A DNA stretch of 61,633 bases, counting the filler, from Stramenopiles sp. TOSAG23-2 (taxonomy: Eukaryota): assembly GCA_900128395.1 (NCBI GenBank). It is 8 parts of 8 records of this genome, joined end to end, with 100 filler letters (N's around TTAATTAATTAA, not from the genome) between each part and the next. Parts side by side here need not be neighbours in the genome. Positions count along the whole stretch, not along the records: positions 1 to 11,324 come from LT649944.1; 7 more parts are not named here. One strand, written 5' to 3'. The notes below the pieces were generated by a model. It saw only the letters and a list, made by a program, of their open reading frames with translations. It was not told the origin of the DNA and searched no databases. This document shows positions 1 through 56,914 of the stretch, piece by piece; position 1 is the first letter of the stretch, and every line of letters starts with the position of its first letter. A program made the position numbers and the translations under genes.

Positions 1-1256
1 GGTGTGGGTGCGGCTTGTTCGTGTGGTAGATTGTTTATGTTGGTGTATTTGCTGGTAGGAAAGTGTAGTATATTTTGTGAATGGTCAAGTCCGAATGGGG
101 ATAATTTGTTGTGTATGACTTTTGAAAGACTTCTGGGGTGGTCAATGGGTAGGTCACCATCGATGCTCCAAGACATGGCTCCACCGAGTCCTTTGGAGAT
201 GATATAGTCCATTTTCATTCCAACAGATTCTGGGTTATCATATGACCAAAAAACGCGTGTTTGATTGTTGGAGCAATAAGCTGCTCCTGCTTGTTTATCT
301 ACGGATTCTACCCCGTCATTTCCTGAAGACGCACCCATATTGATTCCTCGGTAATCGGAATTACCTTTTGCCCATTTATATTCTGCTTCATTTGGTGGTG
401 GTATTCCTTGGAATTTGGATCCCCAACCGCCTTGAATGTTACTGAATCCACGAGCGTAAAATGGTACACCAATGACTAGTCGATGTGGTTGTATTCCTTT
501 GGAGACGTATCGATCAACAGCACTAGACGTGGAAAAGGTGCTTCCAGGGGAGGAGCTATTATGTAAATTAGAGTGGTGTCCAACTGTTTTTGACCAACTT
601 CCTTCATAATCGTAAGCCATAATGGAGATGTGATCAAGGTATTGATGCCACAATTCAATTTTAGAGATGTCTATTTTTTCAATTGCGGCTGGTCCAGCGA
701 TTGTGACTAGGAATTTTCTTTTGGGTGTGATCAAGTTCATTTTATCTCGCAATTCTTTAAGGAATAATGCGAAATTGTTTCCATCATCTGGTCTAGGTGG
801 TTCATTGTGTGATGCTCCTAGAGCTCCCAACCATTCCCAATCGTAATCTAATCCATCAAAGCCGTGTTCAAGCATGAATTGTATGGAGCTATCAACGCAT
901 TTGGTTCGGGTTGTGGGGTTAGCCATGACACTGGGAAAGTGTTTTGAAAGAGTCCATCCTCCGACACTGAGAAGGATTTTGAGGTGTCTGTTTTGTTTTT
1001 TGAGTTCAAATAGGTGTTTGATATTTCCATATACGTGTCCGGCGGGGTCATTCCACGAGTCTCCTCGTTCTGCGTATCGTTTGTCTAGGTCGCTCCATGT
1101 GTCATTCCATGAAAGTTCACCAGTGGGTGTGACGTTTGCGAATGCATAGTTGATGTGAGTAAGTTTATCTACTGGAATGTTCCAAGGGTAGAATTTACGT
1201 CCATATACTCCCCAACTAGGAAAGTAACTAATAATTTTGATATCTTTGGTGGTCAT
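1..1256 (-). CDS. GH18 chitinase, fungal subgroup A-like; 3'-partial (418 codons, runs off the window); absent from the ORF track
   Basis: Manual translation from ATG 1256 is open to position 1: MTTKDIKIISYFPSWGVYGRKFYPWNIPVDKLTHINYAFANV...LKILLSVGGWT...FDGLDYDWE (catalytic DxxDxDxE)...IMAYDYEGSW...LVIGVPFYARGF...SYDNPES...GLGGAMSWSIDGD...LDHSQNILHFPTSKYTNI...AAPTP. Confidence 0.95.
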   Translation of the reverse strand, partial: MTTKDIKIISYFPSWGVYGRKFYPWNIPVDKLTHINYAFANVTPTGELSWNDTWSDLDKRYAERGDSWNDPAGHVYGNIKHLFELKKQNRHLKILLSVGGWTLSKHFPSVMANPTTRTKCVDSSIQFMLEHGFDGLDYDWEWLGALGASHNEPPRPDDGNNFALFLKELRDKMNLITPKRKFLVTIAGPAAIEKIDISKIELWHQYLDHISIMAYDYEGSWSKTVGHHSNLHNSSSPGSTFSTSSAVDRYVSKGIQPHRLVIGVPFYARGFSNIQGGWGSKFQGIPPPNEAEYKWAKGNSDYRGINMGASSGNDGVESVDKQAGAAYCSNNQTRVFWSYDNPESVGMKMDYIISKGLGGAMSWSIDGDLPIDHPRSLSKVIHNKLSPFGLDHSQNILHFPTSKYTNINNLPHEQAAPT

Positions 1257-1272
1257 TAAGTATCTCTGATAT

Positions 1273-1551
1273 TTATTTTTTTTGATCTTTACGCAACTCC
1301 CATTTGTTACCACTTTGATCAAGTTTCCAAGTATGTGTGATGGTCTTGTTGTCGACGAGTTGTACTATAAAGTCTTCTCCGGTTTTAAAGATCCATCGTT
1401 TTTTTTCGACAAGAATGTATCTATAGAATTTTTTGCGTGTAATGGGTATTTCTTTAACAATGATATTACCTTTTGGTGTATACCACATCCATTTACGTGT
1501 CTTGATTTTATTGAAACGTAATCTGAGCTCCAATTTAAAACTGGTTTTCAT
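1273..1551 (-). CDS. Hypothetical basic protein (92 aa)
   Basis: ATG-started ORF that fills the gap between the chitinase and the next gene in a densely packed contig; no recognisable motif. Confidence 0.55.
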   Translation of the reverse strand: MKTSFKLELRLRFNKIKTRKWMWYTPKGNIIVKEIPITRKKFYRYILVEKKRWIFKTGEDFIVQLVDNKTITHTWKLDQSGNKWELRKDQKK

Positions 1552-1595
1552 TACTATTACGAATTAAAAAAGGTATATGGTAACACAAAAAAAAA

Positions 1596-2267
1596 ATGAT
1601 TTTTCATGTGCTTATGAAAAAAGTCATGCAAGGTTATATTGCCATAGATATCGAGTTTACGGGAAGTGGGAAAGATGATGTAATATTTGCGTATGGTCAA
1701 GCTGATTCTAGTATTACAATTCGTGATGAATGTAATGCAAAGAGTGTATGTTTAAATTTGTTCAAGCCGAAAGATACAACATGGGAAGAATATTGGATTG
1801 AAAAGAATTGGGATCCAGATACATTCAAGTTTTGGAATACATGTATAGATATATTGGATTTTCTGCAAGATCCGTCCAAAGTGCACCTTGTAGATACTCA
1901 AGAAGAATTTGTTGAAACAATCAATGATTTACTAATTGAAGCCGAGGAACGTTATTCAAAGAGTATTATTCTAAGTGATACTTTACTTGTAGATACTCCT
2001 TTTGTTTCAAATTTATTGACAATGTTTGGTCACCGAGGATTACATCAAACAAGGCAAGGAAAATATAGATATGGTTTAGAAGTGTCATCATTTATTACTG
2101 GTGCTTTGAATTGTACTCCTGAAGATGCAGATTACAAGAGTGTAAAAGACTTTAAACAGTCTGATGAAAATTCCACAATGACTACAGTTCATAATCATGA
2201 TCCCAAAGAAGATGCCAAAAACATTCTACACTTGTTTTTTAAAACACTCTCATTCGTTGGGAAATAA
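1596..2267 (+). CDS. DEDDh/DnaQ-like 3'-5' exonuclease
   Basis: Exo I motif IAIDIEFTG near the N-terminus and Exo III motif HNHDPKEDA near the C-terminus. The true start may be a downstream Met (1614 or 1626). Confidence 0.7.
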   Translation: MIFHVLMKKVMQGYIAIDIEFTGSGKDDVIFAYGQADSSITIRDECNAKSVCLNLFKPKDTTWEEYWIEKNWDPDTFKFWNTCIDILDFLQDPSKVHLVDTQEEFVETINDLLIEAEERYSKSIILSDTLLVDTPFVSNLLTMFGHRGLHQTRQGKYRYGLEVSSFITGALNCTPEDADYKSVKDFKQSDENSTMTTVHNHDPKEDAKNILHLFFKTLSFVGK

Positions 2268-2288
2268 TAAAAATATCGAGTACATTAT

Positions 2289-2567
2289 ATGACTCTTACA
2301 ACTAAAAGTAAAACAGGTGTAGATTTGTATTACGATAATAAAAAAGTACAAGGGTTTGTGGACTTTACGACCGTTCAAGTGTACTTGTCTAAAGATACGT
2401 CCAGATCATATTGGGTATTAAGTAAAACAAAACCGGCGATAAGTGTAAATGATTCTACTCAAACTATACGTGTGTCTTCTAAATGGAAAGTTGTATTCAA
2501 AACTAGATCAGAATATTCAAAAGCTAAAAAGGCGTTGAGTATACATTATCCGAAATTGCGTGATTAA
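2289..2567 (+). CDS. Hypothetical protein (92 aa), possibly PH-like fold
   Basis: ATG-started and tightly packed. A pattern of beta strands followed by a C-terminal helix is only suggestive of a PH-like fold. Confidence 0.5.
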   Translation: MTLTTKSKTGVDLYYDNKKVQGFVDFTTVQVYLSKDTSRSYWVLSKTKPAISVNDSTQTIRVSSKWKVVFKTRSEYSKAKKALSIHYPKLRD

Positions 2568-2589
2568 AGGCAACTGTATTAAAAAGTAA

Positions 2590-3411
2590 ATGGAGCGTAA
2601 TGATCCTTTATCTATTAATGTAAACACACACGAAAACGGAAAAATTAGTTCTAGTGAGAATAGTGTAATGACTGATTCTTTTTCATCAGAAAACGATCGT
2701 GTGGGTGTAAAGATGAATACGTTCAAGCTTAATAATTATTGGAACAACAAGAATGAAAAGTTGGTTGCCGAGTTGGGTGAAAAGTCTAATGCGTATCAAT
2801 GGTTACATAACAAGTCTGCGAGGAGATATTTTGGTTTGGACAAGATTATAGGTGTGGTGATTACTATATTGGCGGCTATAGTGTCTATTGAATCACAATT
2901 ACCTCAGAACGAGTCGTTTCGTATTATAACGAATATTTTAAAGTTTATGATTTTTGTGGTGAGTTCTATTAATATATTCTTAAACTATCAAGAGTTGTCT
3001 GAAAAGCATAAACAATCTGGTGTAAAGTTTCAGAATTTGTACAATAGGATTGAGGAAGAGGTGTCTCAATACAAGCAATTGCGTAGTAATGCGGTGGAGT
3101 TTTTGCGTGATTGTAACAAGGTGTATACGTCTGTGATATCAGAATCTCCAAATATTTCTGCGCGTGAATTAAAAGAGTTTAAGAATACGTTCAAGAATAG
3201 TTCTATATCAAAGCCTACTATTTTGGATTCATTGACTCATATTGTACCGGTGAAATCAAAAGGTATAGAAAGAGGTACACCATTGCAAGATATGGCTGAG
3301 AATTTGTGTACGGTTGTAAAGATAACGGATGATATAACGGACGAGGACATTATTAATATAAAGTCTGAGCAATTGAAATTTCAGACAGAGAGACTAATGA
3401 ATCAGATCTAA
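2590..3411 (+). CDS. SLATT-like two-transmembrane protein (type common in giant viruses)
   Basis: W..K.EK...ELGEKSNAYQWLHNKSARRY, then two hydrophobic helices (IIGVVITILAAIVSI; ILKFMIFVVSSINIFL), then LSEKHKQSGVKFQNLY. Confidence 0.65.
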   Translation: MERNDPLSINVNTHENGKISSSENSVMTDSFSSENDRVGVKMNTFKLNNYWNNKNEKLVAELGEKSNAYQWLHNKSARRYFGLDKIIGVVITILAAIVSIESQLPQNESFRIITNILKFMIFVVSSINIFLNYQELSEKHKQSGVKFQNLYNRIEEEVSQYKQLRSNAVEFLRDCNKVYTSVISESPNISARELKEFKNTFKNSSISKPTILDSLTHIVPVKSKGIERGTPLQDMAENLCTVVKITDDITDEDIINIKSEQLKFQTERLMNQI

Positions 3412-3460
3412 CTTGCGAACTTGCGTTAGATACGTAGTAAAAAAAAAAGTACATCAATTA

Positions 3461-5215
3461 ATGAAGTTGATTTACGTACACTTGTCTAAATCTCAGGATC
3501 CGCCGGACTATTTATATACTAGTATATATCAAACATGTTTGATAAGCAAGATACATATTGTGATATTGACTAATGAAAGGCACGTGCAAAAGATTAATAA
3601 GCGTTTGTGTTTGATAGACAAACTGCATGATAATGAGATTTCGGTTGTATCTATTGAACACGTTGAAGACAAGAATTTTTTGACAGATTTATTTAGGGAC
3701 GAATTTTGGAGGTATACAACTGAGCGTTTTTTTACTATTGAAAAGTGGTTAAAGTCGTTTGGTATTACAGAGTCTTTTATTCATATTGAGAATGATGTGT
3801 TGTTGTATTCGGATCCTCTTGCTCTTTCATTTACAAAGGGGATGTATATAATCAAGGATACACCTACTAGAGGTATTGGTAGTGTGATATTTTCAACAGT
3901 GAGTGATTGGCATGCATTTATAAAATACGCTGAAGGGTGTACTCCACCAAAGAATGATATGGAGATACTTGGGGGTTACAAGGATGCGTTTTTGTTGCCG
4001 TGCGATCCAAATAATGCTTCTAGATTGGTTTTTGATGGTGCTGCTTTTGGGCAATACATAGCGGGTGTGGATTCTAGGAATATAAAATCAAATACCGAGT
4101 TGACATTGTATGCGAATCCTACTGTTGGCTTTGTAAATGAAACATCGGTGGTCAAGGCGTGTGATTACAAGATTATACGCAAGCTTGTAAACTATAAAGG
4201 AAAGCAAATATTCAAGTATTATATAAAATCAAAGGAAAGAGTGATTGATTTTTTCAATCTTCATATTCATTCAAAGAATCTAGCTCCTTGTACGAGTAAT
4301 TTTGATATCCAATACAAGGATATAATAACGGGTGATCGTATATTAGAGAACTGTGATATAGTCTTTTGTACATATCCGGTGTACATGTATCACAAGGGTA
4401 TAAACGAATTCAATTCCAATGTGGTGGTGATAAACGACTTTAAGCATATAAATAGGAAAAACTTGTACAGGTATATTACAAATATAAAAAAGTACATTAT
4501 CAAGATACACGTTTACACGCACTTGTTGGAAGATTTTACAAGGTATATTTTGCCATTGATTCAATTATTCAACAACAAGTTTGTGTTTTACATTCACAAC
4601 AGTGATCATTCATTTAATGGTACGTACACTTCTTTACTGCATTCAGAGTCGGTTATTAGGGTATATGCTCAGAATATAAGTGTGTATCATGAAAAATTGT
4701 CATTGTTACCTATAGGTATAGCAAATAGTATGTTCAAGCATGGTGACACGCTGTCACTGTACAAAACAATGTCGAGTACGTTTATAAATAAAAAGGAATC
4801 AAATATATTTATGAGTGCATTACAACCAACGCATCGTGTTCGTACATTGATAGACATTACCTCTACTAATTTCAAGTTGTCTCCAAAAATGAATTACAAA
4901 GACTATTTGGTAGAGTTGAGTCGTCATTATTTTTGTTTTTGTCCGCGTGGTAATGGTATTGATACTCATCGTTTTTGGGAGGCATTGTATCTAGGTGTAA
5001 TACCGGTAATTGTAAATACACCAGAAAGTGACATGTCAATTTTTGTGGAATATCTAAAGGATCTGGGTTTACCATTTTACCAAGTTACTGATTTAGATTT
5101 TTTTAAAAAAAACACAAACGAGTTCTTTTCAAAGGACCTTTACGATAGTATTACTGGTAACAAGTTTATTCAATGTAACCAAAATCTGAAATTAACAAAT
5201 TATTTAGCTACATAA
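3461..5215 (+). CDS. Two-domain glycosyltransferase: N-terminal GT-A-like domain plus C-terminal exostosin/GT47-like domain
   Basis: N-half: RFF...HIENDVLLY...FDGAAFGQYIAGVD...GFVNETS...NLHIHSK. C-half: FCFCPRGNGIDTHRFWEALYLGVIPVI. First ATG is at 3461; the ORF track starts at TTG 3413. Confidence 0.75.
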   Translation: MKLIYVHLSKSQDPPDYLYTSIYQTCLISKIHIVILTNERHVQKINKRLCLIDKLHDNEISVVSIEHVEDKNFLTDLFRDEFWRYTTERFFTIEKWLKSFGITESFIHIENDVLLYSDPLALSFTKGMYIIKDTPTRGIGSVIFSTVSDWHAFIKYAEGCTPPKNDMEILGGYKDAFLLPCDPNNASRLVFDGAAFGQYIAGVDSRNIKSNTELTLYANPTVGFVNETSVVKACDYKIIRKLVNYKGKQIFKYYIKSKERVIDFFNLHIHSKNLAPCTSNFDIQYKDIITGDRILENCDIVFCTYPVYMYHKGINEFNSNVVVINDFKHINRKNLYRYITNIKKYIIKIHVYTHLLEDFTRYILPLIQLFNNKFVFYIHNSDHSFNGTYTSLLHSESVIRVYAQNISVYHEKLSLLPIGIANSMFKHGDTLSLYKTMSSTFINKKESNIFMSALQPTHRVRTLIDITSTNFKLSPKMNYKDYLVELSRHYFCFCPRGNGIDTHRFWEALYLGVIPVIVNTPESDMSIFVEYLKDLGLPFYQVTDLDFFKKNTNEFFSKDLYDSITGNKFIQCNQNLKLTNYLAT

Positions 5216-5217
5216 GA

Positions 5218-6135
5218 CTAATATAGATAGTCTATTACAGGATAGAAATATTTGGTAGTGTTTCCATTATTTGTGTATATAACTCTGATTATTGTATTTG
5301 TTGGTATATAACTTCCTCCTATTTTTGAATCACCGAGTACGTATCTTCCTTGGTATCCAAATGTGAAATTGTCAATAACTTTTACAGACATTTTGATGTA
5401 TGATGGGGAGGAAGCTAAAAAACCATTTGTTGCTGGTGTTTTTACAGTTATTCTAGAATTAACAGAGTCTATGTTTGTTATGGTACCAAGATTGTCACTA
5501 TTTATTCCATCTGATACATGTATATAGTATCCTAATTGAGCATTTTCAATTACTGTTGAACTTGCATTAATTATTGTATCTGAAGCAGTGATATCTGATG
5601 TAATACTTCCTATTATAGTTTCTGGAGCTACTATTACTTCGAGTGTGTCATTTTGGTTTTCTGAATGACTATTGAATGATATACTTAGAGCAGAGATTGG
5701 ATAGTCAAATGTGTAATCATGTATTGATTCTCCACTTACACAATCGCATTTGTAACTAACTGATTTGTAATTACCACCTGTAGGTGTTGATTCCTCTACT
5801 ATTCCAACATTAATATTGGAAATCTTGCTTACAAGTTCAGGGATTGAAGAAACTATGTGTGTATTATTATTAAAACATATTTCAGGATAATGTGAAGAAT
5901 TTGTAAATCCTATAACATGTGTTTTTTCAGTATCACACAAGACATTCCATTCATACAAATCGTATGTATTGTCAGGTATTCGTTCAATCAGATTATTTTT
6001 TGAGATGTCAATAGAGTGTGTATTATTATTAAAACAAGTTTGAGGTGATATCCCATCTTTTGTCTTGTAACCAATAATTTTTTGTGACTCTGTGTTACAA
6101 TATATTTGCCATTTTTCAATGATTCTATTTGTCAT
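5218..6135 (-). CDS. Putative virion structural protein with two N-terminal CxTE...PxxCxNNNxH modules
   Basis: 305 aa, beta-rich and S/T/N-rich; duplicated N-terminal module; co-oriented with the fibre-like gene cluster. Confidence 0.6.
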   Translation of the reverse strand: MTNRIIEKWQIYCNTESQKIIGYKTKDGISPQTCFNNNTHSIDISKNNLIERIPDNTYDLYEWNVLCDTEKTHVIGFTNSSHYPEICFNNNTHIVSSIPELVSKISNINVGIVEESTPTGGNYKSVSYKCDCVSGESIHDYTFDYPISALSISFNSHSENQNDTLEVIVAPETIIGSITSDITASDTIINASSTVIENAQLGYYIHVSDGINSDNLGTITNIDSVNSRITVKTPATNGFLASSPSYIKMSVKVIDNFTFGYQGRYVLGDSKIGGSYIPTNTIIRVIYTNNGNTTKYFYPVIDYLY

Positions 6136-6158
6136 TGAATAGTTCTTATAAAAAAAAA

Positions 6159-7793
6159 TTAGTAATCGTCAGTGTAAGTTACTGAAAAGTTAATTTCATT
6201 TATATTTTCAGACTCTGCTGTTATTATAAAACATTCGTTTTGATAAAGATACAACTTGTCTGTGAAATCTATATATACTTGATCTTCTTTTGGTATGTAT
6301 ATGGATTCCAAGAGTAGTCCATTTGTAAATGTGTTTGAAGAATAACTGACTAACCCAATAGAATTAGTTTCATTTATATAATTGTAATTTAGATAATCAT
6401 CTGTTTCAAGTAATGAAATAGTCTCTGGATTTTTATAGATTCGTATAATAACTGGTTTGGACCCATGTGTTATAATGGAAATACGTTTTACTATAATCTC
6501 ACTTTGGTTAGAGAAACCATTGTATGTGTTTCTATTTTTTAAAGTAGATAGAACGACTTCTGTTTTTTTCGGTATTGATATTAGATTTGAAAAACTATGT
6601 GTTGGTGTATATAATATTTTTTGTCCTAAATATCCAGCATAACTTCCAGAAATAATAATAGTAATGGGTGTGGTACTTCCAAGAGATGCTACACCTTGTT
6701 GTAAATACATATTTGGAGATGTTAAACTAGGGGTAGTGGATGTGTTTGCGAATGAAAGAGTGTGTACAGTTTCATATATGCTCGTATCTGGATTATAGAC
6801 CTTGAATAAAACATTTCCAGACCCGTACCATGAATATTCTATAGCGTACATATTTCGTTTAAGAGGATCTAGTACACTTACCATACTACTAGATCCATTC
6901 CAATTTGTTCTATTAGTGAATGATGTAGATAGACTTGTTCCTTGTGTTTTTTGAGAAAATGTACCTGTAGCATTACCGTTGGAAGTAAATGAAAAGGTGT
7001 TTGTGTTTGGTCCTACATGTCGTGATTGAAATATAATAGTTGTTCCTATTGCCTCTACATTCCATCCATCATACGTAGTTCCATAAGCAATTTGTGATGT
7101 TGTGTAGTTTAAATCCCCATTTGCGTCGTCTAAATCAACTGTAAATTCAGTACCGTTAAGAGTAACTGTACCTGTTTTATTATTACTAGATTCATCATTG
7201 GTTATTGTTAATATACGTATTTCGGATTTACCATCTGTTGATATTCTAGTTCCGAATTCCGTACCATTGTAACAAAAGTATAAATCACTATTTCCATTAC
7301 CAACTCCTCCGAATTGCAAAGAATTTGCAATTGGTGTATCAAATATCATATTTACACGTATAACGGTGGAAACACCTGGTCTGTATTTTATGACTTTTAG
7401 ACATCTTATGACTGAATAACTATATAGATCATTTTGGATTGAAACATCAAGTTCGCAACCATTAATATTTGGGGAACTAGTACCACCATTTGAACAAAAA
7501 CATGTTGTTAGTTGCGTGTTTAATATACCATACAAGAAATAAGTTTGAAAAATTGGTGCTGTTTGGTTTATTTGCAATTCTCCAAACATGTTTTTTTCAC
7601 CAGCATTTACTGACAGTTCTCCATTTATATTTGTATTACCTTGGCTTGTGATTGTATCTATAATGGTTGTTAATGAACTATCTATTGAATGTCCGTTATT
7701 GTTTGGGCAAACTGTGGGTGTTGATTCATCCCAAACATATGTGTAAACTGTCTCGGTGGTACAATAAATACGATAGCGATTTAGTGTGCTCAT
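6159..7793 (-). CDS. Putative virion structural protein (544 aa) with one N-terminal CxTE...PxxCxNNNxH module
   Basis: Beta-rich, with YRPG, FCYNGTEFG and YSWYGSGNVLF segments reminiscent of phage/NCLDV structural hypotheticals. Confidence 0.6.
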   Translation of the reverse strand: MSTLNRYRIYCTTETVYTYVWDESTPTVCPNNNGHSIDSSLTTIIDTITSQGNTNINGELSVNAGEKNMFGELQINQTAPIFQTYFLYGILNTQLTTCFCSNGGTSSPNINGCELDVSIQNDLYSYSVIRCLKVIKYRPGVSTVIRVNMIFDTPIANSLQFGGVGNGNSDLYFCYNGTEFGTRISTDGKSEIRILTITNDESSNNKTGTVTLNGTEFTVDLDDANGDLNYTTSQIAYGTTYDGWNVEAIGTTIIFQSRHVGPNTNTFSFTSNGNATGTFSQKTQGTSLSTSFTNRTNWNGSSSMVSVLDPLKRNMYAIEYSWYGSGNVLFKVYNPDTSIYETVHTLSFANTSTTPSLTSPNMYLQQGVASLGSTTPITIIISGSYAGYLGQKILYTPTHSFSNLISIPKKTEVVLSTLKNRNTYNGFSNQSEIIVKRISIITHGSKPVIIRIYKNPETISLLETDDYLNYNYINETNSIGLVSYSSNTFTNGLLLESIYIPKEDQVYIDFTDKLYLYQNECFIITAESENINEINFSVTYTDDY

Positions 7794-8381
7794 TTATGTT
7801 TGACAATATATTAATTCGAAAGAATTTACGATAATACCTCCAGTTGTATTTGTGGAGTCTAGTTTTGCTTGTATTTCAAAGATGCTATTTGTGTTTGGTA
7901 TATTGTTTAGTGTATTCAATGAAACATTTGATTCTTGTATATTGTTTAAACCAGATTGTTCTTGAATTACTTTTCCATTTGTCAAGTCTAGTATACGTAG
8001 CGAGTAATCAAATGTTTCTTTTGAATTTTTAAAGCTATTGATGTTGATAATAGATAAAGATCCTACATTTGGGTTAAAGCTAAAACTTGATACCTTGGTA
8101 TAATCAGTGGACACTATTTTTGTGGGAACTAATGGATATGTGTTGGAGAAATCTATGACTGGATCTATAGGATTAGTGTATGTTTTAACTGATGTGTTTA
8201 TAGCATCGATTGTAGTCTGATCAAGAATACTATTAAATTCTATACTAATACTGTTGTTTTGATTGTTTTTTCCAGTATCAATTACTGTGTAATTTACAGT
8301 GACTGTGTGATTATCAAGTATGTATTGAGTAAAATTGGATAATCTACTAATATATTTAGAATATTGTAAAATAGTTGTCAT
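7794..8381 (-). CDS. Hypothetical beta-rich protein (195 aa), probably structural
   Basis: Its stop codon abuts the ATG of the next gene; same composition as its neighbours. Confidence 0.55.
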   Translation of the reverse strand: MTTILQYSKYISRLSNFTQYILDNHTVTVNYTVIDTGKNNQNNSISIEFNSILDQTTIDAINTSVKTYTNPIDPVIDFSNTYPLVPTKIVSTDYTKVSSFSFNPNVGSLSIININSFKNSKETFDYSLRILDLTNGKVIQEQSGLNNIQESNVSLNTLNNIPNTNSIFEIQAKLDSTNTTGGIIVNSFELIYCQT

Positions 8382-8403
8382 TAGAGTATATATGTAAAAT
8401 TAT

Positions 8404-11324
8404 TCATGTTAATCTCCATATTTCAATTCGTGCTTCTTTAATGGACGCAGAGGTATTTGTGGATGCTACTTTAAAATCTAAATCTATGGTATGAACTCCT
8501 AATGTTAACGAGATATGACTAAATCCAGATGTTGCGATATCTTGGTTACTTCTTTGTGTACTTTCTGTAGTTTCATGGATTACTAAAGAATCATCTATTT
8601 GAATTCTACTACTAAAATCTTGATTAGTGTTATCTATTGTCCATATATAATAAAAACCTACTCTATATATACCAGATGGTATATTATCAGTGACTAGACG
8701 TATTTTTTGTACATAATTGGTGCTATTAGTGCTTGTAGTGCTGGTGCTTTCTACATAATTTAGTTCAGTACCAAATATTACGAGACCTTGTTCTCCAACT
8801 GTCAATGGTTCTAGACGTAATATAGAAATACTGGTTCCTAAAGGAGCTACTCTTAAATTATTACCATCAAGGATAACACTTTGAAGTTTTATAATAGTTC
8901 CTGCAGAGAATTGAAAAGATCCATTAATGAATGATTGTTCCGTTCCGGTATTTGTATTCGTATGATAACTACAACTTTCTGTTCCAGCGACTTCAAAAAA
9001 ACCTTGTCCATTGTTTGCTACTAGTCTAGTTTTTGCATTAGATCTAGTAGTTCCGGAAGATTTTTCAATAGATACCTTGGCAAAGATAATATAACGTCCA
9101 TCTTCTTCTAGAGTTATTTGTGAAGAATTAGGTGTGTGTGTGTATTCAGTGTCTTTAAGTCTTTCTGTTTTGATAGGTATATCTATATAATTTGTATTCA
9201 AGGTTGTATTTCCGGTATCATTATAACCATCGAAATATTTTACAGAGGACTGACCCAAAGTAGAGGATAATTTGAGCACATTAAAGTTGCATCCGTTTAC
9301 AATTGTGGATGAAAGATTTGCTCCACTTTCTGTTATTGCTTGTATTTTTACTTTATCTCCAGTCAATGCTGAATATACACAATTAAAGATTGCGGTTTCA
9401 TCAGAATCTGGAGAATCATCGTTATGTATATAACTTCGGGTTCCTGGGATCTCTGTATACCCAGAGCCTGAATCAATAACCAATCTAATATTACTTTGTG
9501 TCTCAGTATTTGAATTAGTTCTAGTTGAGATATTACAATTGATTATATATATACCATCTTCTGTAATATCAAGTATTCCCGTGCTTGTATTATATGTGTA
9601 TATGGAATCTACTAAACGAGTAGTATTAAATAATACATCTGTATAACTTGTTGAGATATTTTGCGATGATGAAACATATGATGAAAAGAATTGAGAATTA
9701 TCGTTATTAGTATCAATAGATGGTTTGATGATAAGTAATTCTGATCCATTTTGGAGGCTCTTGATAGTTGACGATCCCGAGTCTCTTTTAAACTGTATTT
9801 TAATTTTTTCGTTAGAGGCGGCTTGGTAAATAAAGATGATACTAGATGTATTACATCCATTGTCGTCATCACGATTAAACATAAATGCTTGTGTTCCTGG
9901 GATTTCTGTGTACCCTCCTCCAGTATCAGATACTAATCGTACACTACTAGTGGAATTATTATTACCTGTTTCAACGAATGAAGTCATTCTGAAAGATATC
10001 AAAAATTTTCCAGGTAAATTGAACTCTATAATATTTTGTTCCAACAGAGAATGTGTATATATATCATCAATGCGTCTATCTGAATCGAACAAAAGATCTT
10101 GATATGAATCAGAAAAAGTCTGGGATCCGCTACTATACAAATTACAGTATTTGTTGGAGTTTGGGTCAGATCCTGTTCCACCTGTACCAGACGAAACATT
10201 TGCCCATTTAATTCCTGTAGGTTGTGATGCATCTACAGTAAGAACTTGTGATTCAGATCCTACTGATAGTTTTTCCTGTGTAGCACCATTGTGTGACAAA
10301 ACATCTCCCTTTGTATTTGTGGGTTGGTAAGTTGTGATTATTCCAGAATTATTTATTGATTTGAATAAATTATCTGTGGTATCAAGATAAAAATGTTGTG
10401 AAGTACTTGTTGAATTACTGGGAGTAGATGTTTTATTAAGAGTCATTACGTTAAGAATATCAAGGGAGTCTCCTATGAATACGTTTTTTTGTACAGCCAT
10501 TCCACCATTAATTTGCAGTGCTCCAGTGGTAATAGATGTACTATTTGTCGTTTCTGTGACTATAATTTGTCCTTTTGTGATATTTGATGTACTTGTTAAT
10601 ATGAGATTATCAGATGCTCCTGTACCGCCAAGAGCTATTTGACCTCCAGCACGTCCACCTAGTAATAAATACTGTGTATGATCATCATCACCTAAACCTA
10701 ATAAAGAACCATGATCAAAATCATCCCATTCAATACCACTTGAAATTACTGAATTTGCTCTCAACACTTGTCCGTCAGTGCCTATAGGTAATCTAATTAC
10801 GTTGCTTCCGTCTTCAACTAATATATCACCTTTTGTGGTTGTAACAGTGACTTGGTCAATTGTAACAGAATGTGGGTTACCAGTGGAGCTGATGTGTGAA
10901 TCTATTTGTGCATGTGTGTTAGTGCCTGCCCCGGACAAGTTTTGATGTACAATGTTGCCTTCATTAAGTGTGAGATCTACTTCTAAAGTATCAGAAACAA
11001 CGGAAATACGATCAGTGGTACTTGTGATGCTTTTGAATTCGAGATCATTACCAGTTTTTTGTTTAAAGACTCCTATACCTGCTCCAACATTACTTGCGGT
11101 GGCGTTACTAGATTCTGTTCCCCAAACAAGTCCAGAGGCTTCGGATGAGTCTGCCAACAACACTTGTCCGTCAGTACCTATAGGTAATCTAATGACGTTG
11201 CTTCCGTCTTCAACTAATATATCTCCTTTGGTGGTTGTAACAGTGATTTGGTCAATTGTAACAGAATGGGGGTTACCAGTGGAGCTGATGTGTGAATCTA
11301 TTTGTGCATGTGTGTTAGTGCCTG
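8404..11324 (-). CDS. Fibre/spike-like protein, 5'-partial: tail-fibre-like stalk repeats, three tandem C1q/BclA-CTD-like domains and a terminal beta domain
   Basis: The frame is open to the contig end at 11324; the track's start at 11163 is an internal TTG. Repeats TTKGDILV...RLPIGTDGQVL.A.S...G..W and GNPHSVTIDQ. Three ~145-aa domains share F....D..YT...G.Y.I...RLV...G.G..E..GT...IK.Q. Confidence 0.7.
10762..11324. repeat. Intragenic direct repeat: 10762-10928 and 11158-11324 (167 bp matched, 396-bp/132-aa period)
   Basis: Near-identical copies (caacacttgtccgtcagt...tgtgtgttagtgcctg) with mostly synonymous differences. The contig ends inside the repeat. Confidence 0.9.
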
Positions 11325-11424
11325 NNNNNNNNNNNNNNNNNNNNNNNNNNNNNNNNNNNNNNNNNNNNTTAATTAATTAANNNNNNNNNNNNNNNNNNNN
11401 NNNNNNNNNNNNNNNNNNNNNNNN
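11325..11424. other. Artificial contig spacer
   Basis: N44-TTAATTAATTAA-N44; stop codons in all six frames. Confidence 0.98.
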
Positions 11425-13072
11425 CTACGTAATTATTTTGACCATTTTCATTTGCAACTTTTAATAAATTATTTCTAACGAATCGACCAGCTTGCACTAA
11501 TGTATCTTCGAAAACAAGCGCATTTTGTATACGATTCTCTAAATTCAATGCATGTGGCCCAACAAATTTTACTAAATAGTGGGATAAACCGTCTGGACTT
11601 TGTATTTTCAAGATTGGCCAGTGTTTTCTTAAATAACCATATTCACGCCTATACCAATCTAAAGGTGCCTCTCTAGAATGTGGCGCAGGATATATAGTTT
11701 TCTTTAATGCATTTGGTTTGATATTTATTTTATTAAAATCATCCTCGTCGATAAAACGTATTATTCCCATTAAATTGAGTCTCATTTGATCAACATTGAA
11801 TAATCTTTTAAATTCTATTGTCTTATCTACCCCCCATTGCAATAATCGTGGTTTTTCAATTGATAGCCGGGGCAAGATTAATGTTCTATTTAATACATGA
11901 CTGATAGCAATAAATTGAATAATTTCTTTAATTTGGTTGTTTAAACCACCGGAAGGGGGACGAAATATAATATATCTAGTTTCTTCTATTTCTAATATTT
12001 GTTGTTGATCCATAATTTGTGTTGGATATTCTATGTAATAATTTGGATCTTTGTTTCGTTCATTTGCATACGTCCAATTTTGTTCTTGTAATGGAAATTT
12101 TGATGAATCTTTGCTTAAATATTCATAATTCTTGAACATTTCATTTNNNNNNNNNNNNNNNNNNNNNNNNNNNNNNNNNNNNNNNNNNNNNNNNNNNNNN
12201 NNNNNNNNNNNNNNNNNNNNNNNNNNNNNNNNNNNATTTGCACTTTTTGTAGCATATGACGCTAATCCATTCCATCCATGTTTTTGTTTTATTTGACTAT
12301 AATCGTATAAATCTGATGGGTTTAAATTAAAATAATTTTCAATAGCTTTCTTTCTATGTGAAAAGTGATCCCATGCGAACCATACGGATGTAACACTTTG
12401 ACGCCCAAACCAGGTTTCAATTGGAAAATATTTATGTGGAGTTTTCCCACCGTCGTTAACAGCTGATGATGATGGCGGTATATAAATAGGTGCCATACGT
12501 AAAATATGATAACCAATACTTAATTCTAACGATCTATGTTTATAAGATAGAAATTTACCATCTTTTAATGGTGGTTTACTACTACTTGGATACATTTGAC
12601 ATATTTTAGATTGAGATACTATATCTTCATCTAATCGAAATACAAACATCAAGTCATCACATAAATTTGGCAAGTATTCTAATATCCAAAAGTTATGAGC
12701 AGCAAATTCAAAATGTAAAATTGATTTCAAGTCATGCGTTGGAAAAACAGTAGATGAAGGTTGAATGAATGTGACATCAAGTGCAAATGGAAAATAACCA
12801 ATATATTTGGGTTTTGCACATCGTTCTTCGTTTGTAAATGATTTGTCTAAATATTTATGATATTTCAATGACACAGGTAGATTTACATCGTTACTTGGAA
12901 TTATATTATCTATTTCTTTTTTTCTTTTCTTAAAACGCATGTAATTATGATTATGAAGTGCAATTATTATTGGTGAAGTGACAAATAATAATATGATGGA
13001 AATTAAAAACATATATAACATTACTTTGCATTTTCTTCTGTAGCAACAATGATGGTGAATATAACGATGCAT
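11425..13072 (-). CDS. Type II membrane protein with GDP-fucose O-fucosyltransferase-like domain; 3'-partial, with an internal N gap at 12147-12235
   Basis: Signal-anchor MLYMFLISIILLFVTSPIIIAL; motif GGLNNQIKEIIQFIAISHVLNRTLILPRL. Likely start MHRYIH at 13072; the ORF track starts at 13231. Confidence 0.7.
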
Positions 13073-13441
13073 GGCTAAATCTATACGAATGAAGCGAAAA
13101 AAGATGATGCTATTTATAATTGTGCCAGATGTATGATTTATTTTTTTCTTTTTCTTTGTATCCCTGCCCCTCGTATTATTAATAATAATATTATTTTGAA
13201 GTAATTCTAATACTAAAATTCGTTCAATCAATCATCAAAAAAATAATAAATAAACGACGAGACGCGTCGTCGTTTTTAAGTTGAAGAAGAAGGAGAAATA
13301 CTGTAGCACCAACAATGCAAGCACAGCAGAGACGAGAGGCACGCGTAGAAAATAATATATACATACATATACATACATAACAAAGATAGAAATTTAAAAA
13401 CAACACACCGCTATTCATATACATATATATTCTACTATACG

Positions 13442-14392
13442 ATGGGATTTGGAATGTTTGGCTTACTAGCTATTGTTGGCTTTGTTGGCAATTTATATAA
13501 AGATGATGGAGGTGTACCATTACCTTTTACGAATACGAAATTGCCAGTTTATTCAACACTGGTATATGATACAGCCACGACAAATTGGAAATCAATATTT
13601 ATTGAAAATTATATATTATGGTTAGTATTATATACTATAGCACATGTATTAATGTATGTTGAACCGCAACGTAATTTATTTAAACCGTTCAAATTGAACA
13701 AACAATATCCAAAAAATAAATTGATTGTAAAAGAAATATTACGTTCTGCGCGATCTGTTTTTATCGCTTCTACATATGAATATTTTGTGAATTATTTATT
13801 TGTGAATGGTCACATCAACTCGAATTTAATATGGGATTATTTAAAAATAAGTGAAGATGGATCATTAAGTTTTCAAACATTATTAGCTGCAGGAGTGCTT
13901 GCATATTTATGGGGGGATACGCATTTTTATTGGACACATCGCCTTTTACATACAAAATGGTTGTATAAAAATGTTCATAAAATTCATCATGAAAGTTTTA
14001 ATCCAGATCCATGGAGTGGATTAAGTTTTCATTGGTTTGAATCAGCAGTATATTTCAGCGCCGCACCAATGATTTCTATGTTTTCCCCATTGTGGTTGAC
14101 ACGGTTTATGATCAAAGGGTTATTAATATTCCCATTGGAAGGACATTCTGGTCATGGCAGTTGGGCATTAGAGGATACCTGGAATCATTATATACATCAT
14201 TCTAAATTCAATTGGAATTATGGCTCTAGTCCAATGTGGGACCATATCTGTGGTACAAATTATGATCCAGCTAAATTAAATAAAAAACGTGCCGCAGAAT
14301 CGTTGATACAAGCAAAACTAGTTGGTGCAACTATTGCAAAAGGATTAAAAGGTGAAGCTGGTTTTGTACAGGAAGGAAAGAAAAAAAATTGA
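13442..14392 (+). CDS. Sterol desaturase / fatty-acid hydroxylase superfamily protein
   Basis: His boxes HFYWTHRLLH, HKIHH, GHSG and HYIHH followed by NYG...WD.ICGT; several TM segments. Confidence 0.9.
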   Translation: MGFGMFGLLAIVGFVGNLYKDDGGVPLPFTNTKLPVYSTLVYDTATTNWKSIFIENYILWLVLYTIAHVLMYVEPQRNLFKPFKLNKQYPKNKLIVKEILRSARSVFIASTYEYFVNYLFVNGHINSNLIWDYLKISEDGSLSFQTLLAAGVLAYLWGDTHFYWTHRLLHTKWLYKNVHKIHHESFNPDPWSGLSFHWFESAVYFSAAPMISMFSPLWLTRFMIKGLLIFPLEGHSGHGSWALEDTWNHYIHHSKFNWNYGSSPMWDHICGTNYDPAKLNKKRAAESLIQAKLVGATIAKGLKGEAGFVQEGKKKN

Positions 14393-14757
14393 GAACACCA
14401 TTATTTTACGACGAACGTGTTCGTATTTACAGACACAGTATTTGTATTATTATATGTGTTCAATTTTAAATTGAAAATAATATTTTACCTAAAGAAAATA
14501 TTCGTATATGATACGAATAAAATAACAGTATATATAGCTTACGAGAGTATTATATATTATACGAACTTCGTATAGTTTTTTGTATTCCTCGCTTCTTCGT
14601 TGTATGCATGTAAATACGTTCGGTAAAACATAAAAATACACACTTAACACAAAAAGTATCAATTTACGAAAGTATGATACAGAATGTAGCTACTTCTTCT
14701 TTATCTTTCTGCTTTTTATCTTTTTAATATGACATATACAATGCATATGATATCATA

Positions 14758-16230
14758 CTAAATTCTTCTTCTTAATTCTACTCCATCATTATTATTATTG
14801 TTACGACTACCACCTACAGCACCTTCCATATCATTACCATATCCATCATTAGTTGTGTTATTCAAGAAAACATTATTATTTTTCTTTCTTTCATCATCAT
14901 CAACAATATCCCAATAATTAAATGTATAATACGATAACCCAATTAATATGAAACAGCCACTAATATAACATATACGAAAAGATTGAAAATAATCATAGGA
15001 AAAGGTCCAAAAAAACGAACCAAGACCATTACCAACAACCCATACATTAGACATAAATGTTTGTGAAGTATTTTGTAATGTTTTTGGAGCATTGAGTTTA
15101 GCATATCGAACAGCTGCAACCCACATTACAGCAAAACAAAATCCATGTAATAATTGTATAAACACAATCATATATGGATATTGTAATGGGGTTAAAAAAT
15201 ATAAAAACAAACGTAATGCACATGCTGAATGTGCAATAACAAACATTTTTTTAACTTTATATGTTTCCAATAAATAATCCGAGTAATGAAAAACAGGAAT
15301 TTCAAAAAGTACACTTATAAATATACATAAACCTTGTATTGTTTTACTTGCATGGTATTCTTTTTCCAATATAATAAATAATAAAGATTCGACTAATGAA
15401 AAGCAAAAACCATAAATAAGTAATATGAAATAAAATTGTTGTAAATCTTTATTGCAAAAAAAGATTTTCATATTACTAAGAGTGGAAGCAAAGGATGAGT
15501 TTCCATCATTATTAATAATATTATTCTCGTTGTTATTATTATTATTATTATTATTGTTGTTGTTGCTGCTACTGTTGTCCTCATTATTAGCATTTTCCCC
15601 CTTCTTTTCTTCTTCTTTTTGTAGTTCTACAATTTTATTCATGTTTTTCTTTTCTTCTTCTTCTTCTTCTTCTTGTGGTTGTTGTTCCGGAGATGGTATA
15701 AAAACAATCAATATTATGATATCCAAAAACATTATAAACCATGTTAAATAAAAAACTAAATTAATCCCATAGGATGAACGGTCTATAATATATCCAACAA
15801 GAAAAGAACACAATCCCCAACTAATAGCACAATACATTCTTGTTTGGCCATATCCTTTCCCTTTGATTAGTAAAAGAGCCATCGATTCAGTCAACGGCCA
15901 CACAGCATTTAATCCAGATCTTATAAATTTAATAAATATCAATAAAGCAAATGTATTTAATACATATTCAGAACGTAATAAAATTAATGATAATCCACAT
16001 AAAAAAATACTTGAAATTAATGTAAATTTAACATTTTGTGTATAATCTGAAATTAAACCCCATATTGGATAGGCAAATGCCTTTGCAAAAAATCCAACCA
16101 AACGCAACGTACCTATTTGTGTAGCAGAAATACCTTTGCTGACAAAATATGCAGTTGAAAATCTTCCCCATGGTACAGCAGATGCTGTTGTTATGATCAT
16201 TAAAATCTTGGCTGCAACTACTGCTGACAT
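14758..16230 (-). CDS. MFS transporter (MFS_1-like/MFSD6-like)
   Basis: About 12 TM segments; WGLISD, YGQTRMY..ISWG, EIPVF and QLLHGFCFAVMW motifs; central E/N low-complexity loop. Confidence 0.85.
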   Translation of the reverse strand: MSAVVAAKILMIITTASAVPWGRFSTAYFVSKGISATQIGTLRLVGFFAKAFAYPIWGLISDYTQNVKFTLISSIFLCGLSLILLRSEYVLNTFALLIFIKFIRSGLNAVWPLTESMALLLIKGKGYGQTRMYCAISWGLCSFLVGYIIDRSSYGINLVFYLTWFIMFLDIIILIVFIPSPEQQPQEEEEEEEKKNMNKIVELQKEEEKKGENANNEDNSSSNNNNNNNNNNNNENNIINNDGNSSFASTLSNMKIFFCNKDLQQFYFILLIYGFCFSLVESLLFIILEKEYHASKTIQGLCIFISVLFEIPVFHYSDYLLETYKVKKMFVIAHSACALRLFLYFLTPLQYPYMIVFIQLLHGFCFAVMWVAAVRYAKLNAPKTLQNTSQTFMSNVWVVGNGLGSFFWTFSYDYFQSFRICYISGCFILIGLSYYTFNYWDIVDDDERKKNNNVFLNNTTNDGYGNDMEGAVGGSRNNNNNDGVELRRRI

Positions 16231-17011
16231 TTTTGTTTTTTAATTACAATGTGCCAATCATATATATTATTTTATTTTACTTTTTTTCCTCGTCTTTCTT
16301 TGTTAAATATCTATATATCTATATATGTATATACACACAAAAAAGTTAATATCTCTATTCAATTGATTGTACATCAATAATATATAGATCACAATGCAGA
16401 AAATAATAAGATTTTAATATTGTTACTAGACGACTAACTATATATATCCGGAATATGTAAATGTATTTTTATTATAGTGATGAATGAATGAATGCCAGGA
16501 AGAATGGCCAATGCAAATAAAAAAATAATAATTGAGAAAAAAAAAAAGATTATTTTTTACATACTTTAAGGTATAAATCGATATTTTTTATAATATTATT
16601 CTAATTTCCCTTTCAAGTATAACTTATGGTCATTTGATATAGAAAATTTCAAAGAAAAATATCGGGGTCCAATAAGTATAGATTTAGTATACCATCTATA
16701 GATATTTGATAGGTAGATCTCGTGGAAAGAATAAATTCATAAAATCCAAAAATGGCCAATATGTTAATCTGGATGAAAAAATATCTAGAATATCCGATTT
16801 TTGTCATTAACATCATCATCAGTTGTCTCAGTCGACTCAGTCGACTCTTCTTCTTTTTTTTTTACTTTTTTTTTTAATTAGAAAAAAAAACAAAATAGAT
16901 ATGTCGTCTGTCTAGTCGTCTATGTATATATTAAAATACAGAATCATCAAAACGACACAATTGAACACACAGATATATATATAGATAGATACATTGTAAG
17001 AAGGATACAAG

Positions 17012-17758
17012 ATGTCAGCAGCAGCTGCAGCAACATTTTTAACGACGGCGAAAAAAAAACTCAATGTAAAATTATTAATATTGGATTGTGATGGAATTAT
17101 ATTTAATTCCAATAATTTAAAAACAAATGCATATCGTGAAGTGTTGAAAAAATTAAATGTATCCAACGAAGGTATTGACGCTTTTGTGAAATTGCATTTA
17201 TCAGATGTATCCGTCAGTCGTTTTGTAAAGTTTAGTAAATTTTTTAAAGAGATCTATACTGAATTATCAGATAATGATGAAAGCAAGGAAAAACAATTAG
17301 TGGAACAAGCATTAAATGGTTATAGTGAACAATGTTTAGTATTATATTCTAAATTAAAGCCAGTGAAACAAGCCATTCAGTTAGCACAGAAAATACCATA
17401 TACATACGTAGTTAGTGGTGGTGCACAAACAGAGTTGAACCATGTATTTAAAGAACATCAAATTGCAAATCATTTCCAAGAGATTTTAGGGTCTCCTATT
17501 ACTAAACCGGAACATTTAAAATATCTCTTTGAACAAACTGGAATTGAAAAAGAAAATACATTATTTATTGGTGATGGATATACAGATTTCAAAACCTCTC
17601 GTCAATATGATATTAATTTTTGTTTTCTTGAACAAATGTCAGATTGGAAAGATAATGTTGAGCAAATGAAAGGATATGAACATCATGTGACACGATGTAA
17701 ACATTGGGATGATATTATTAATCAATTTGAATTTACATCTGATGGAAGTCATTTGTAG
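17012..17758 (+). CDS. HAD-superfamily hydrolase
   Basis: Motif I LDCDG, motif II VSGG, motif III K (TKP), motif IV FIGDGYTD. Confidence 0.9.
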   Translation: MSAAAAATFLTTAKKKLNVKLLILDCDGIIFNSNNLKTNAYREVLKKLNVSNEGIDAFVKLHLSDVSVSRFVKFSKFFKEIYTELSDNDESKEKQLVEQALNGYSEQCLVLYSKLKPVKQAIQLAQKIPYTYVVSGGAQTELNHVFKEHQIANHFQEILGSPITKPEHLKYLFEQTGIEKENTLFIGDGYTDFKTSRQYDINFCFLEQMSDWKDNVEQMKGYEHHVTRCKHWDDIINQFEFTSDGSHL

Positions 17759-22625: not shown

Positions 22626-22744
22626 GCGTCTTTACATATATATTTATTCTCCCCCACATTCCTTTAAATATATCATTTTCTCTGACTCATATATTTAAAT
22701 ATATATATATATATATATATCACTTTTTTTTTCTAATTCTCATT

Positions 22745-34252: not shown

Positions 34253-34262
34253 GTCTACCAAC

Positions 34263-45641: not shown

Positions 45642-45642
45642 A

Positions 45643-56906: not shown

Positions 56907-56914
56907 ACTAATGT

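Follow-up and report, generated by a model that had tools for sequence, protein, structure and literature searches.

A fungal-like GH18 chitinase on giant-virus DNA filed with a stramenopile assembly

The DNA studied here, hereafter the window, is a stretch of 61,633 nucleotides joined from eight parts of the Stramenopiles sp. TOSAG23-2 assembly (GCA_900128395.1), and its first piece (positions 1 to 11,324, from LT649944.1) carries a gene for a family 18 glycoside hydrolase (GH18) chitinase at its very edge. The presence of a real GH18 chitinase with a complete catalytic domain at positions 3..1256 is far beyond chance, and the piece on which it lies is giant-virus DNA, labelled mimivirid. Taken together, it is likely that the gene encodes the first 418 of the 516 residues of a giant-virus chitinase that belongs to the eukaryote-type clade of the family, outside the fungi, and that would be synthesized in the cytoplasm and would cut chitin.

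The chitinase is read from an open frame on the minus strand, 3..1322, which passes the window start, while an ATG at position 1256 gives the 418 residues analyzed (protein P0001). The gene was missed by the track of open reading frames (ORFs), as the earlier note on this DNA had remarked, because the frame runs off the window edge and open-ended frames are excluded by default. The following features were distinguished:

3..1256, minus strand: coding sequence of the GH18 chitinase, residues 1-418, cut at the window edge (ORF, Pfam, PDB sequence and fold matches)
834-857, minus strand: catalytic motif DGLDYDWE, of the DxxDxDxE form, residues 134-141, with D134, D137, D139 and E141 (invariant alignment columns)
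36..89, minus strand: C-terminal segment LDHSQNILHFPTSKYTNI, residues 390-407, of fungal type (profile and fold alignment)
1..20, minus strand: start of a Pro/Thr linker, EQAAPT and a partial Pro codon (translation; the relative P0002 continues there)

The Pfam profile PF00704 is matched over its entire length (positions 1-317 of 317) by residues 7-368, with an E value of 1.8e-80 and 271.4 bits at a cut-off of 29.6. Across 12 aligned GH18 sequences, drawn from fungi and from unlabelled relatives, no variation is seen at D134, D137, D139 and E141, nor at S97, G99, G100 and W101, M213, Y215 and D216, R269 and W363, of which we take the S97-W101 and M213-D216 columns to be the SxGG (SxGGW) and MxYD motifs of the family. 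Within the C-terminal segment, N395, S402 and N406 are invariant in the same alignment. The structure model, with a predicted local distance difference test (pLDDT) value of 82.5 and a predicted template modelling score (pTM) of 0.87, presents a (beta/alpha)8 barrel with an alpha+beta insertion. GH18 enzymes are retaining hydrolases in which the N-acetyl group of the substrate itself acts as the nucleophile. All residues for this mechanism are present, and the enzyme is apparently active. The N-terminus, MTTKDIKIISYFPSW, leads directly into the first barrel strand (strand 6-12 of the model), and the 22 in-frame codons upstream of the ATG contain no hydrophobic stretch; the relatives P0002 and P0004 likewise start without a signal peptide. 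At the other end, the translation stops at LPHEQAAPT, and the remaining two coding-strand bases are CC, as deduced from the first codon of the plus-strand frame. The earlier note's description of the protein, that is, a complete catalytic barrel with DGLDYDWE, the lack of a signal peptide and an AAPTP linker start at the edge, is thus confirmed, with AAPT read directly and CC deduced as the partial Pro codon.

In regard to its kinship, the chitinase is closest in both sequence and fold to the fungal subgroup-A enzymes (CTS1, ChiB1, Chit42). Comparison with PDB sequences by phmmer gave 247-269 bits for fungal enzymes, aligned over residues 2-409, vs 204.5 bits for Bacillus ChiA1 and 169 for Serratia ChiA, both aligned to about residue 369, and 148 bits for the baculoviral Ac-ChiA, while the 289 bits of the top row, a two-domain Paenibacillus enzyme, are the product of two domains (130 and 164 bits). 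When folds were compared with VIA-align, nine fungal entries, representing CTS1, ChiB, ChiB1, CrChi1 and Chit42, reached Z 50.1-51.1 at a root-mean-square deviation of 1.8-2.2 with 381-385 aligned residues and 36-39% identity; bacterial, insect, nematode and mammalian enzymes followed, all with Z of 43.4 or less. Only the fungal structures could be aligned up to residues 410-412. The C-terminal end of a profile, defined as the last 12 positions of the profile of the 12-sequence alignment, was reached by 118 of 121 listed homologues and by none of the 80 bacterial or 77 IMG/VR proteins, a count biased towards fungal-type sequences, from which the profile was built. Among the best 120 of 2461 proteins with E<=0.001, all organism names are fungal except for one plant-labelled row, and identity to the fungi is 34-40%. 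After the catalytic motif, an insert of about 10 residues is present in the window protein, in Rozella and Paramicrosporidium and in giant-virus enzymes, and is lacking in eight rows from Dikarya, Mucoromycota and Glomeromycota. Among viral folds in BFVD, the named neighbours belong to metagenomic giant viruses, Marseillevirus LCMAC201 (29% identity) and Homavirus (28%), and chlorovirus GH18 proteins show 10-12% identity and rank 30th or lower.

The position of the enzyme within the family was examined on two trees. Matching ORFs of 80 bacterial and 77 IMG/VR loci were translated and the proteins cut to the GH18 domain; a quick FastTree tree of 276 rows, from which P0005 and L160 were left out as too short, already separated the groups. 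A more careful tree was calculated with IQ-TREE (LG+C20+F+G4, with ultrafast bootstrap and the Shimodaira-Hasegawa-like approximate likelihood ratio test, SH-aLRT) from 74 rows picked by hand out of 278 domain-cut proteins, namely 5 of the window group, 13 unlabelled homologues, 18 named fungi, 20 bacteria and 18 IMG/VR rows. The phylogeny proposed in the earlier note was run with fungal, bacterial, IMG/VR and unlabelled sequences, and chlorovirus enzymes were compared by identity in BFVD. The window chitinase is found in a eukaryote-type clade of 45 rows (100/96) and is absent both from the bacterial clade, in which 20 bacterial and 2 unlabelled proteins make up 22 rows (100/94), and from an IMG/VR group of 7 rows that branches outside (99/91), including L094, L096, L099 and L112, which we assume to be baculoviral. 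Within the eukaryote-type clade, P0004 forms the first branch. P0002, P0003 and the window protein make up a trio (100/100), whose sister group consists of P0006, P0009 and P0025 (95/94). The latter three are unlabelled, bear a signal peptide wherever the N-terminus is present, and are rich in Asn and Lys, as in AT-rich organisms. Eleven IMG/VR chitinases form a clade of their own (100/100), whose link to the fungi is weak (86/71). The fungal clade comprises 27 rows (98/92) with Rozella and Paramicrosporidium at its base, and inside it the Dikarya/Mucoromycota clade that holds the Ech42 type has full support (100/100); the window protein is outside of both.

Since it is located outside the fungal clade, the chitinase is fungal-like but, by the tree, not of fungal descent, and the gene would have come from a eukaryote whose chitinase was of the fungal-like kind, without a fungus being shown as the source. 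The earlier note had assigned the protein to the fungal subgroup-A type rather than to the bacterial or baculoviral ChiA type, and this assignment is supported by sequence, fold, the C-terminal segment, the lower score of Ac-ChiA and the two tree clades that exclude it. The same note also proposed a capture from a fungus or a fungus-like eukaryote, and as far as a fungus is concerned the placement and the retained insert do not agree with it. Of the opposite outcomes that it had named, nesting among bacterial enzymes did not occur (100/94 for the bacterial clade), and the chlorovirus GH18 entries of BFVD are only 10-12% identical. Direct capture from a subgroup-A, Ech42-type fungus would account for the almost exclusively fungal names among the listed homologues, for the best fold matches being fungal structures and for the fungal-type C-terminal segment. 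We nevertheless regard it as improbable, as the careful tree leaves the gene outside both the fungal and the Dikarya/Mucoromycota clades, the insert that the eight fungal rows lack is kept, and identity to fungi does not exceed 40%. Furthermore, labelled non-fungal eukaryotes are hardly sampled, so that the nearest named relative is not equivalent to the donor.

The viral nature of the DNA around the gene has to be considered for piece 1 alone, as the window is composed of eight pieces, five of about 11.3 kb and three of about 1.47 kb. The joins are spacers in which paired N runs, 44 each, surround the twelve bases TTAATTAATTAA, a sequence with a stop in all six frames:

1-11324: piece 1
11325..11424, no strand: artificial spacer (N44, TTAATTAATTAA, N44) at the end of piece 1
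11425-22744: piece 2, interrupted by a gap of 89 N
22845-34152: piece 3
34253-45541: piece 4
45642-56914: piece 5
57015-58488: piece 6
58589-60061: piece 7
60162-61633: piece 8
22745-22844, 34153-34252, 45542-45641, 56915-57014, 58489-58588 and 60062-60161: the other spacers

The ORFs 11369..13231 and 10952..11380 extend into spacers, and features are not readable across the joins. The chitinase is confined to piece 1 (1..11324). Genes for eL6, a TRAPP subunit, PP2A-B56, PH-domain proteins and VPS9 are located on pieces 4 and 5 and not on piece 1, and therefore speak neither for nor against its viral origin. From eL6, TRAPP and B56, all of the window could be taken for DNA of a compact cellular eukaryote, an interpretation that was dropped once the spacers were recognized.

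Two proteins of piece 1 have identical counterparts in BFVD, both labelled Mimivirus AB-566-O17: the chitinase is 100% identical over 418 columns to A0A1X9VNM7, a GH18 domain-containing protein, and ORF 6159-7793 is 100% identical to A0A1X9VNN2. This name is that of a species under Mimiviridae in the NCBI taxonomy, and one paper counts it among the reference Mimiviridae. ORFs cover 0.89 of the bases of piece 1 vs 0.50-0.72 in pieces 2-5. Upstream of the chitinase, the piece contains:

1273..1551, minus strand: small ORF of 92 amino acids (aa), directly upstream of the chitinase (ORF list)
1596..2267, plus strand: ORF of 223 aa, no family match
2590..3411, plus strand: 273-aa protein resembling SLATT_5 weakly, at 26.4 bits where the cut-off is 29.5
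3461..5215, plus strand: GT47/RXYLT1-like glycosyltransferase (weak Pfam match; IMG/VR relatives)
5218..6135, minus strand: ORF of 305 aa with two N-terminal Cys/His modules (sequence)
6159..7793, minus strand: beta-rich protein of virion-structural type, 544 aa (phrog_1645, BFVD)
7794..8381, minus strand: ORF of 195 aa, no match
8404..11324, minus strand: fibre-like protein, N-terminus cut at the piece end (weak phrog tail-fibre match)

The SLATT_5 family is described as a two-transmembrane (2TM) effector domain, and this 2TM protein and the glycosyltransferase form a pair that recurs in giant viruses. For the glycosyltransferase, a representative library contains 4489 relatives at E<=0.001, and IMG/VR contains 150, many of them on GVMAG-named contigs. 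A homologue of ORF 2590-3411 lies at most 7 kb from the glycosyltransferase in 26 of the 80 IMG/VR loci kept, and in 24 of the 25 loci listed it is upstream and on the same strand, as in the window. All three genes, those of the chitinase, the 2TM protein and the glycosyltransferase, are found within 4.5 kb on the 66-kb IMG/VR contig L124, where the 2TM protein is 26% identical (E 2e-14) and the glycosyltransferase 35% (E 1e-64), and where the cluster is flanked by genes for an epimerase, an ERCC4 nuclease and a DUF5832 protein. Several other IMG/VR genomes, for example on contigs of 412 kb and 472 kb, possess both a chitinase of the IMG/VR clade and the glycosyltransferase. The virus-like contig suggested in the earlier note is thus corroborated for piece 1 by the complete identities in BFVD and by the occurrence of the 2TM/GT47-like pair in giant-virus loci. 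The genes in window 1-5215 may represent a block moved between giant viruses, and the chitinase gene may have travelled in such a block together with those of the 2TM protein and the glycosyltransferase. Runs of eight or more A residues are located 8-25 bases before the starts of the chitinase, ORF 1596-2267 and the glycosyltransferase, accounting for three of the six such runs in piece 1, which gives a small hint of shared expression signals; the mimivirus-type motif AAAATTGA is not enriched in piece 1.

The architecture of the relatives indicates what could follow beyond the window edge. Of the 516 aa of the identical BFVD entry, the window covers the first 418 and lacks 98. P0002, which is 77% identical, 540 aa long and encoded on a contig of 62 kb, continues with about 95 Pro/Thr-rich residues and then with a tail of about 25 residues ending in KKIHISFDLNVDKSEIENGVLKFTN, and the C-terminal ends of P0005 and, more weakly, of P0004 resemble this tail. 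By comparison with these relatives, the rest of the window chitinase would consist of a linker rich in Pro and Thr, followed by a short, conserved tail. P0002, P0005, P0004 and eight IMG/VR chitinases all lack a signal peptide and have both a Pro-rich linker and a tail at the C-terminus. When 201 proteins were ranked with a profile built from six of the IMG/VR tails, the first place was taken by P0002 (E 0.0022) and the second by P0005 (E 0.13), with both matches at the very C-terminus. No non-chitinase ORF was matched by the tail profile among the 6575 ORFs of the loci and the window, so that within this sample the tail is no general tag, a test that is circular for the chitinases themselves. 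Prediction of a homo-oligomer from three copies of P0002 residues 496-540 scored 0.01, which is evidence neither way. This common linker-tail design suggests a shared viral history of giant-virus chitinases, one that the tree does not require. The linker anticipated in the earlier note is present in P0002, but the binding module to which it might have led was not found there, as P0002 has no Pfam match to a carbohydrate-binding module (CBM) or to anything else beyond GH18; CBM5/12 occurs in more distant giant-virus relatives, in six of the 11 IMG/VR clade members checked and, at the N-terminus, in the chitinase of L124. P0001 alone as a query found no relative in the IMG/VR and metagenome scans, and P0002 found only three weak loci (29-40% identity) in metagenome contigs.

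Two proteins from the IMG/VR loci show more elaborate fusions. In the 1406-aa protein at L089 7884-12101, GH18 is combined with two further enzymes, a GH46 chitosanase and a PL14 lyase, and CBM5/12 is matched weakly, with 24.9 bits falling short of the cut-off, and at L100 6399-10862 GH18 is fused to a GH46 chitosanase in a single protein of 1488 aa.

Several observations weigh against a giant-virus chitinase of this kind. The best tree contains no single clade of giant-virus chitinases. When the trio of the window protein, P0002 and P0003 was constrained together with P0004 and the 11 IMG/VR rows, a group named after the tree was seen, the log-likelihood of the careful tree changed by -14.06, with a p value of 0.113 in the approximately unbiased (AU) test; for the quick tree, the p-AU of this constraint was 0.654, and it is thus rejected in neither case. 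None of the 77 IMG/VR proteins has the fungal-type C-terminal segment, which their clade thus lacks. The tail and most of the linker are beyond the window and are deduced from the 516-aa BFVD entry and the relatives. Direct adjacency of chitinase and glycosyltransferase was observed in only one of the 80 IMG/VR loci. The composition of the gene is also different from its surroundings, as the chitinase has a GC content of 0.42 and a GC content at third codon positions (GC3) of 0.37, and the structural genes of piece 1 have GC3 of 0.19-0.21. Finally, in the one public run that matches the stretch (share of words 0.97), bases 1-2886 are distributed over five short contigs with a word depth of 4-8, and from base 2864 on there is one contig of 8018 bases with a word depth of about 20.

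The last two of these observations could also be explained by a cellular chitinase gene, of the host or of a co-sampled eukaryote, that was misassembled onto viral DNA, all the more as plainly cellular genes are present on other pieces of the window and the GC of piece 1 outside the chitinase is about 0.33. However, the step in depth at 2864-2886 falls inside the unbroken ORF 2590-3411, and giant-virus homologues of this ORF align across it (residues 41-218/238). The raised GC3 is not restricted to the chitinase, being 0.37 in ORF 2590-3411 and 0.35 in the glycosyltransferase, both typical giant-virus genes, with 0.24 in the intervening ORF 1596-2267 and 0.16-0.31 in the cellular pieces. In L124, where the same three genes occur together, GC is 0.40-0.47. 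Furthermore, the codon usage of the chitinase is unlike that of the cellular pieces (r 0.36), and its relatives share the linker-and-tail architecture of giant viruses. A misjoin of this sort is accordingly very improbable.

Regarding the role of the giant-virus chitinase, it would be made in the cytoplasm of the host, given that it lacks a signal peptide, and chitin would therefore be reached either by an enzyme borne on the particle or after rupture of the cell. The enzyme may thus act as a virion-carried protein at entry or once it is freed at lysis, and it may cut the chitin of the host covering or of engulfed material. The host with a chitinous wall, cyst or lorica and the role in entry or egress that the earlier note proposed are putative. 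In viral relatives, CBM5/12 modules and fusions to a chitosanase or a lyase would fit an attack on an insoluble wall. A different role, somewhat unlikely in our estimate, is that the enzyme does not open a chitinous covering of the host but acts on chitin that is dissolved or derived from prey, within the infected cell or once it has lysed, and supplies N-acetylglucosamine to the host or to viral glycan synthesis. The missing signal peptide and the nearby glycosyltransferase would suit such a role, and it was argued in PMC6789865 for the chitinase of ChoanoVirus, a marine giant virus infecting a host in which no chitin structure is known. On the other hand, the CBM5/12 of six of the 11 IMG/VR clade members and of L124, the GH46 fusions in L089 and L100, and the PL14 lyase of L089 would fit an attack on insoluble wall polymer.

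A broader proposal can be drawn from all of the above, which we consider unlikely, and put forward only as speculation. Mimivirid-type viruses might possess a chitinase design of their own, made up of GH18, a Pro-rich stalk, an optional CBM5/12 and a tail of about 25 residues, that originated from one old fungal-like capture. The tail might fix or oligomerize the enzyme on the virion and make it an entry tool against chitin-covered protists, and the genes of the chitinase, the 2TM protein and the GT47-like enzyme might constitute an exchanged glycan island.

The window chitinase was also compared with known systems. With the fungal subgroup-A (class V) GH18 enzymes, that is, Coccidioides CTS1, Aspergillus ChiB1/ChiB, Trichoderma Chit42/Ech42 and Clonostachys CrChi1, it shares the barrel with the alpha+beta insertion, the catalytic residues, the C-terminal segment and, in the part seen, the absence of a CBM. 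In contrast to them, it is virus-encoded, is located outside the fungal clade and carries the insert of about 10 residues, and the fungal enzymes are without the Pro/Thr linker of the window chitinase and the short tail of its relatives. With the GH18 proteins of IMG/VR giant viruses (L087, L088, L090, L092, L095, L124 and others, four of them GVMAG contigs), it has in common the lack of a signal peptide, the Pro-rich linker, the eukaryote-type clade and a GT47-like gene in the same genomes, and its relatives share the conserved tail with them. These proteins differ from it by an identity of 30-34%, by the lack of the fungal-type C-terminal segment and by CBM5/12 or GH46/PL14 fusions in many of them. 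Chlorovirus chitinases (vChti-1, PBCV-1 type) and baculovirus ChiA are also virus-encoded GH18 enzymes, linked to the breakdown of wall or cuticle. They are nevertheless distant from the window chitinase, the former by identity and rank in BFVD (10-12%, 30th or lower), the latter by the 148 bits of Ac-ChiA vs 247-269 for fungal enzymes. The ChoanoVirus chitinase, as described by Needham et al. 2019 (PMC6789865), comes from a marine giant virus and branches with opisthokont enzymes; by this description, and not by sequence, it resembles the window chitinase in belonging to the wider mimivirid group and in raising the same question of role.

Similar giant-virus enzymes are thus already known, and the window chitinase is a further example, whose protein is public as a machine-annotated GH18-domain protein. 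Alone it is unsurprising, because of this public entry and because opisthokont-like chitinases of marine giant viruses were reported before (PMC6789865). In the paper listings searched on giant-virus, Nucleocytoviricota and Mimiviridae chitinases and on AB-566-O17, we found no paper on this chitinase, and no published description of its placement, of the linker-tail design or of the clustering with the 2TM and glycosyltransferase genes. Virus-encoded chitinases provide hints on the covering of the host and on the entry and exit of giant viruses, and they bear on how lysis turns chitin, a large marine pool of carbon and nitrogen, into small sugars. The gene in the window adds a marine mimivirid case with a fungal-like enzyme and points to a shared linker-tail design that can be tested.

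The remaining part of piece 1, from 5218 to 11324, is occupied by four ORFs on the same strand, with a spacing of 0-22 bases. ORF 6159-7793 matches phrog_1645, annotated as 'virion structural protein' (E 1.6e-15), and is 25-28% identical to structural proteins of T4-like cyanophages; in phage S-T4 its homologue sits between both terminase genes. Its model (pLDDT 89.6) matches, after the identical entry, a protein of Bodo saltans virus (E 1.2e-40, template modelling score TMq 0.77), and further BFVD matches are from Pyramimonas orientalis virus and many tailed viruses. The beta-rich family to which it belongs, which also includes L004 5908-7491, extends over mimivirid-type viruses, tailed phages and haloarchaeal tailed viruses. 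The ORF has 108 sequence relatives, whose labels, where there are any, are those of metagenome-assembled genomes only, and a search by pattern gave no match in IMG/VR or GTDB genomes; in the protein database, it is recorded on a contig of 19,188 nt. Its N-terminal part contains one copy of a module, Y-x-I-Y-C-x-T-E ... C-P/F-N-N-N-x-H-S-I, which spans about 45 residues and is present in two copies in the 305-aa ORF. C11, C29 and H35 are nearly invariant in 12 relatives, and this Cys/His module of ORFs 5218-6135 and 6159-7793 may serve in metal binding or anchoring. The fibre-like ORF 8404..11324 contains tail-fibre motifs of about 40-60 residues common to six phage records and found also in IMG/VR L091. 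For ORFs 1596-2267 and 8404-11324 there was no PDB sequence match, and relaxed Pfam thresholds added nothing.

On the other pieces, the plainly cellular genes include the following:

38213-38872: eL6 (166.6 bits to plant eL6)
40508-41110: TRAPP subunit (Pfam)
43872-45272: PP2A-B56 (Pfam 462.6 bits; 390 bits to human B56)

Together with those of the PH-domain proteins and VPS9, they are unbroken ORFs within 34253-56914. B56 has unlabelled relatives that are 90% and 78% identical, one of them in a eukaryote proteome set, and its best named matches are from oomycetes and diatoms at about 50% identity. In codon usage, these cellular genes of pieces 4 and 5 are similar to the viral structural genes (r 0.81-0.88), and they may represent DNA of the host or of a co-sampled organism filed with the virus. 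Neither tRNA genes nor Rfam families were found in the window.

Several further ORFs, all on the minus strand, were also observed. In the 650-aa ORF 24046-25998, Helicase_C (residues 167-266) precedes an SNF2-related domain (346-529), the reverse of their usual order, which may be due to a rearrangement, an assembly artefact or two genes taken for a single one. The DnaJ protein at 28220-29836 on piece 3 matches eight IMG/VR loci with a best identity of 26%, and is the sole ORF outside piece 1 with a match in the 2.26 Mb of IMG/VR loci searched. A C-type lectin protein is encoded at 56959-58446 and a TIG-domain protein at 60114-61628, while 30572-33520 encodes a GH78 alpha-L-rhamnosidase of 982 aa with all five bacterial-type domains.

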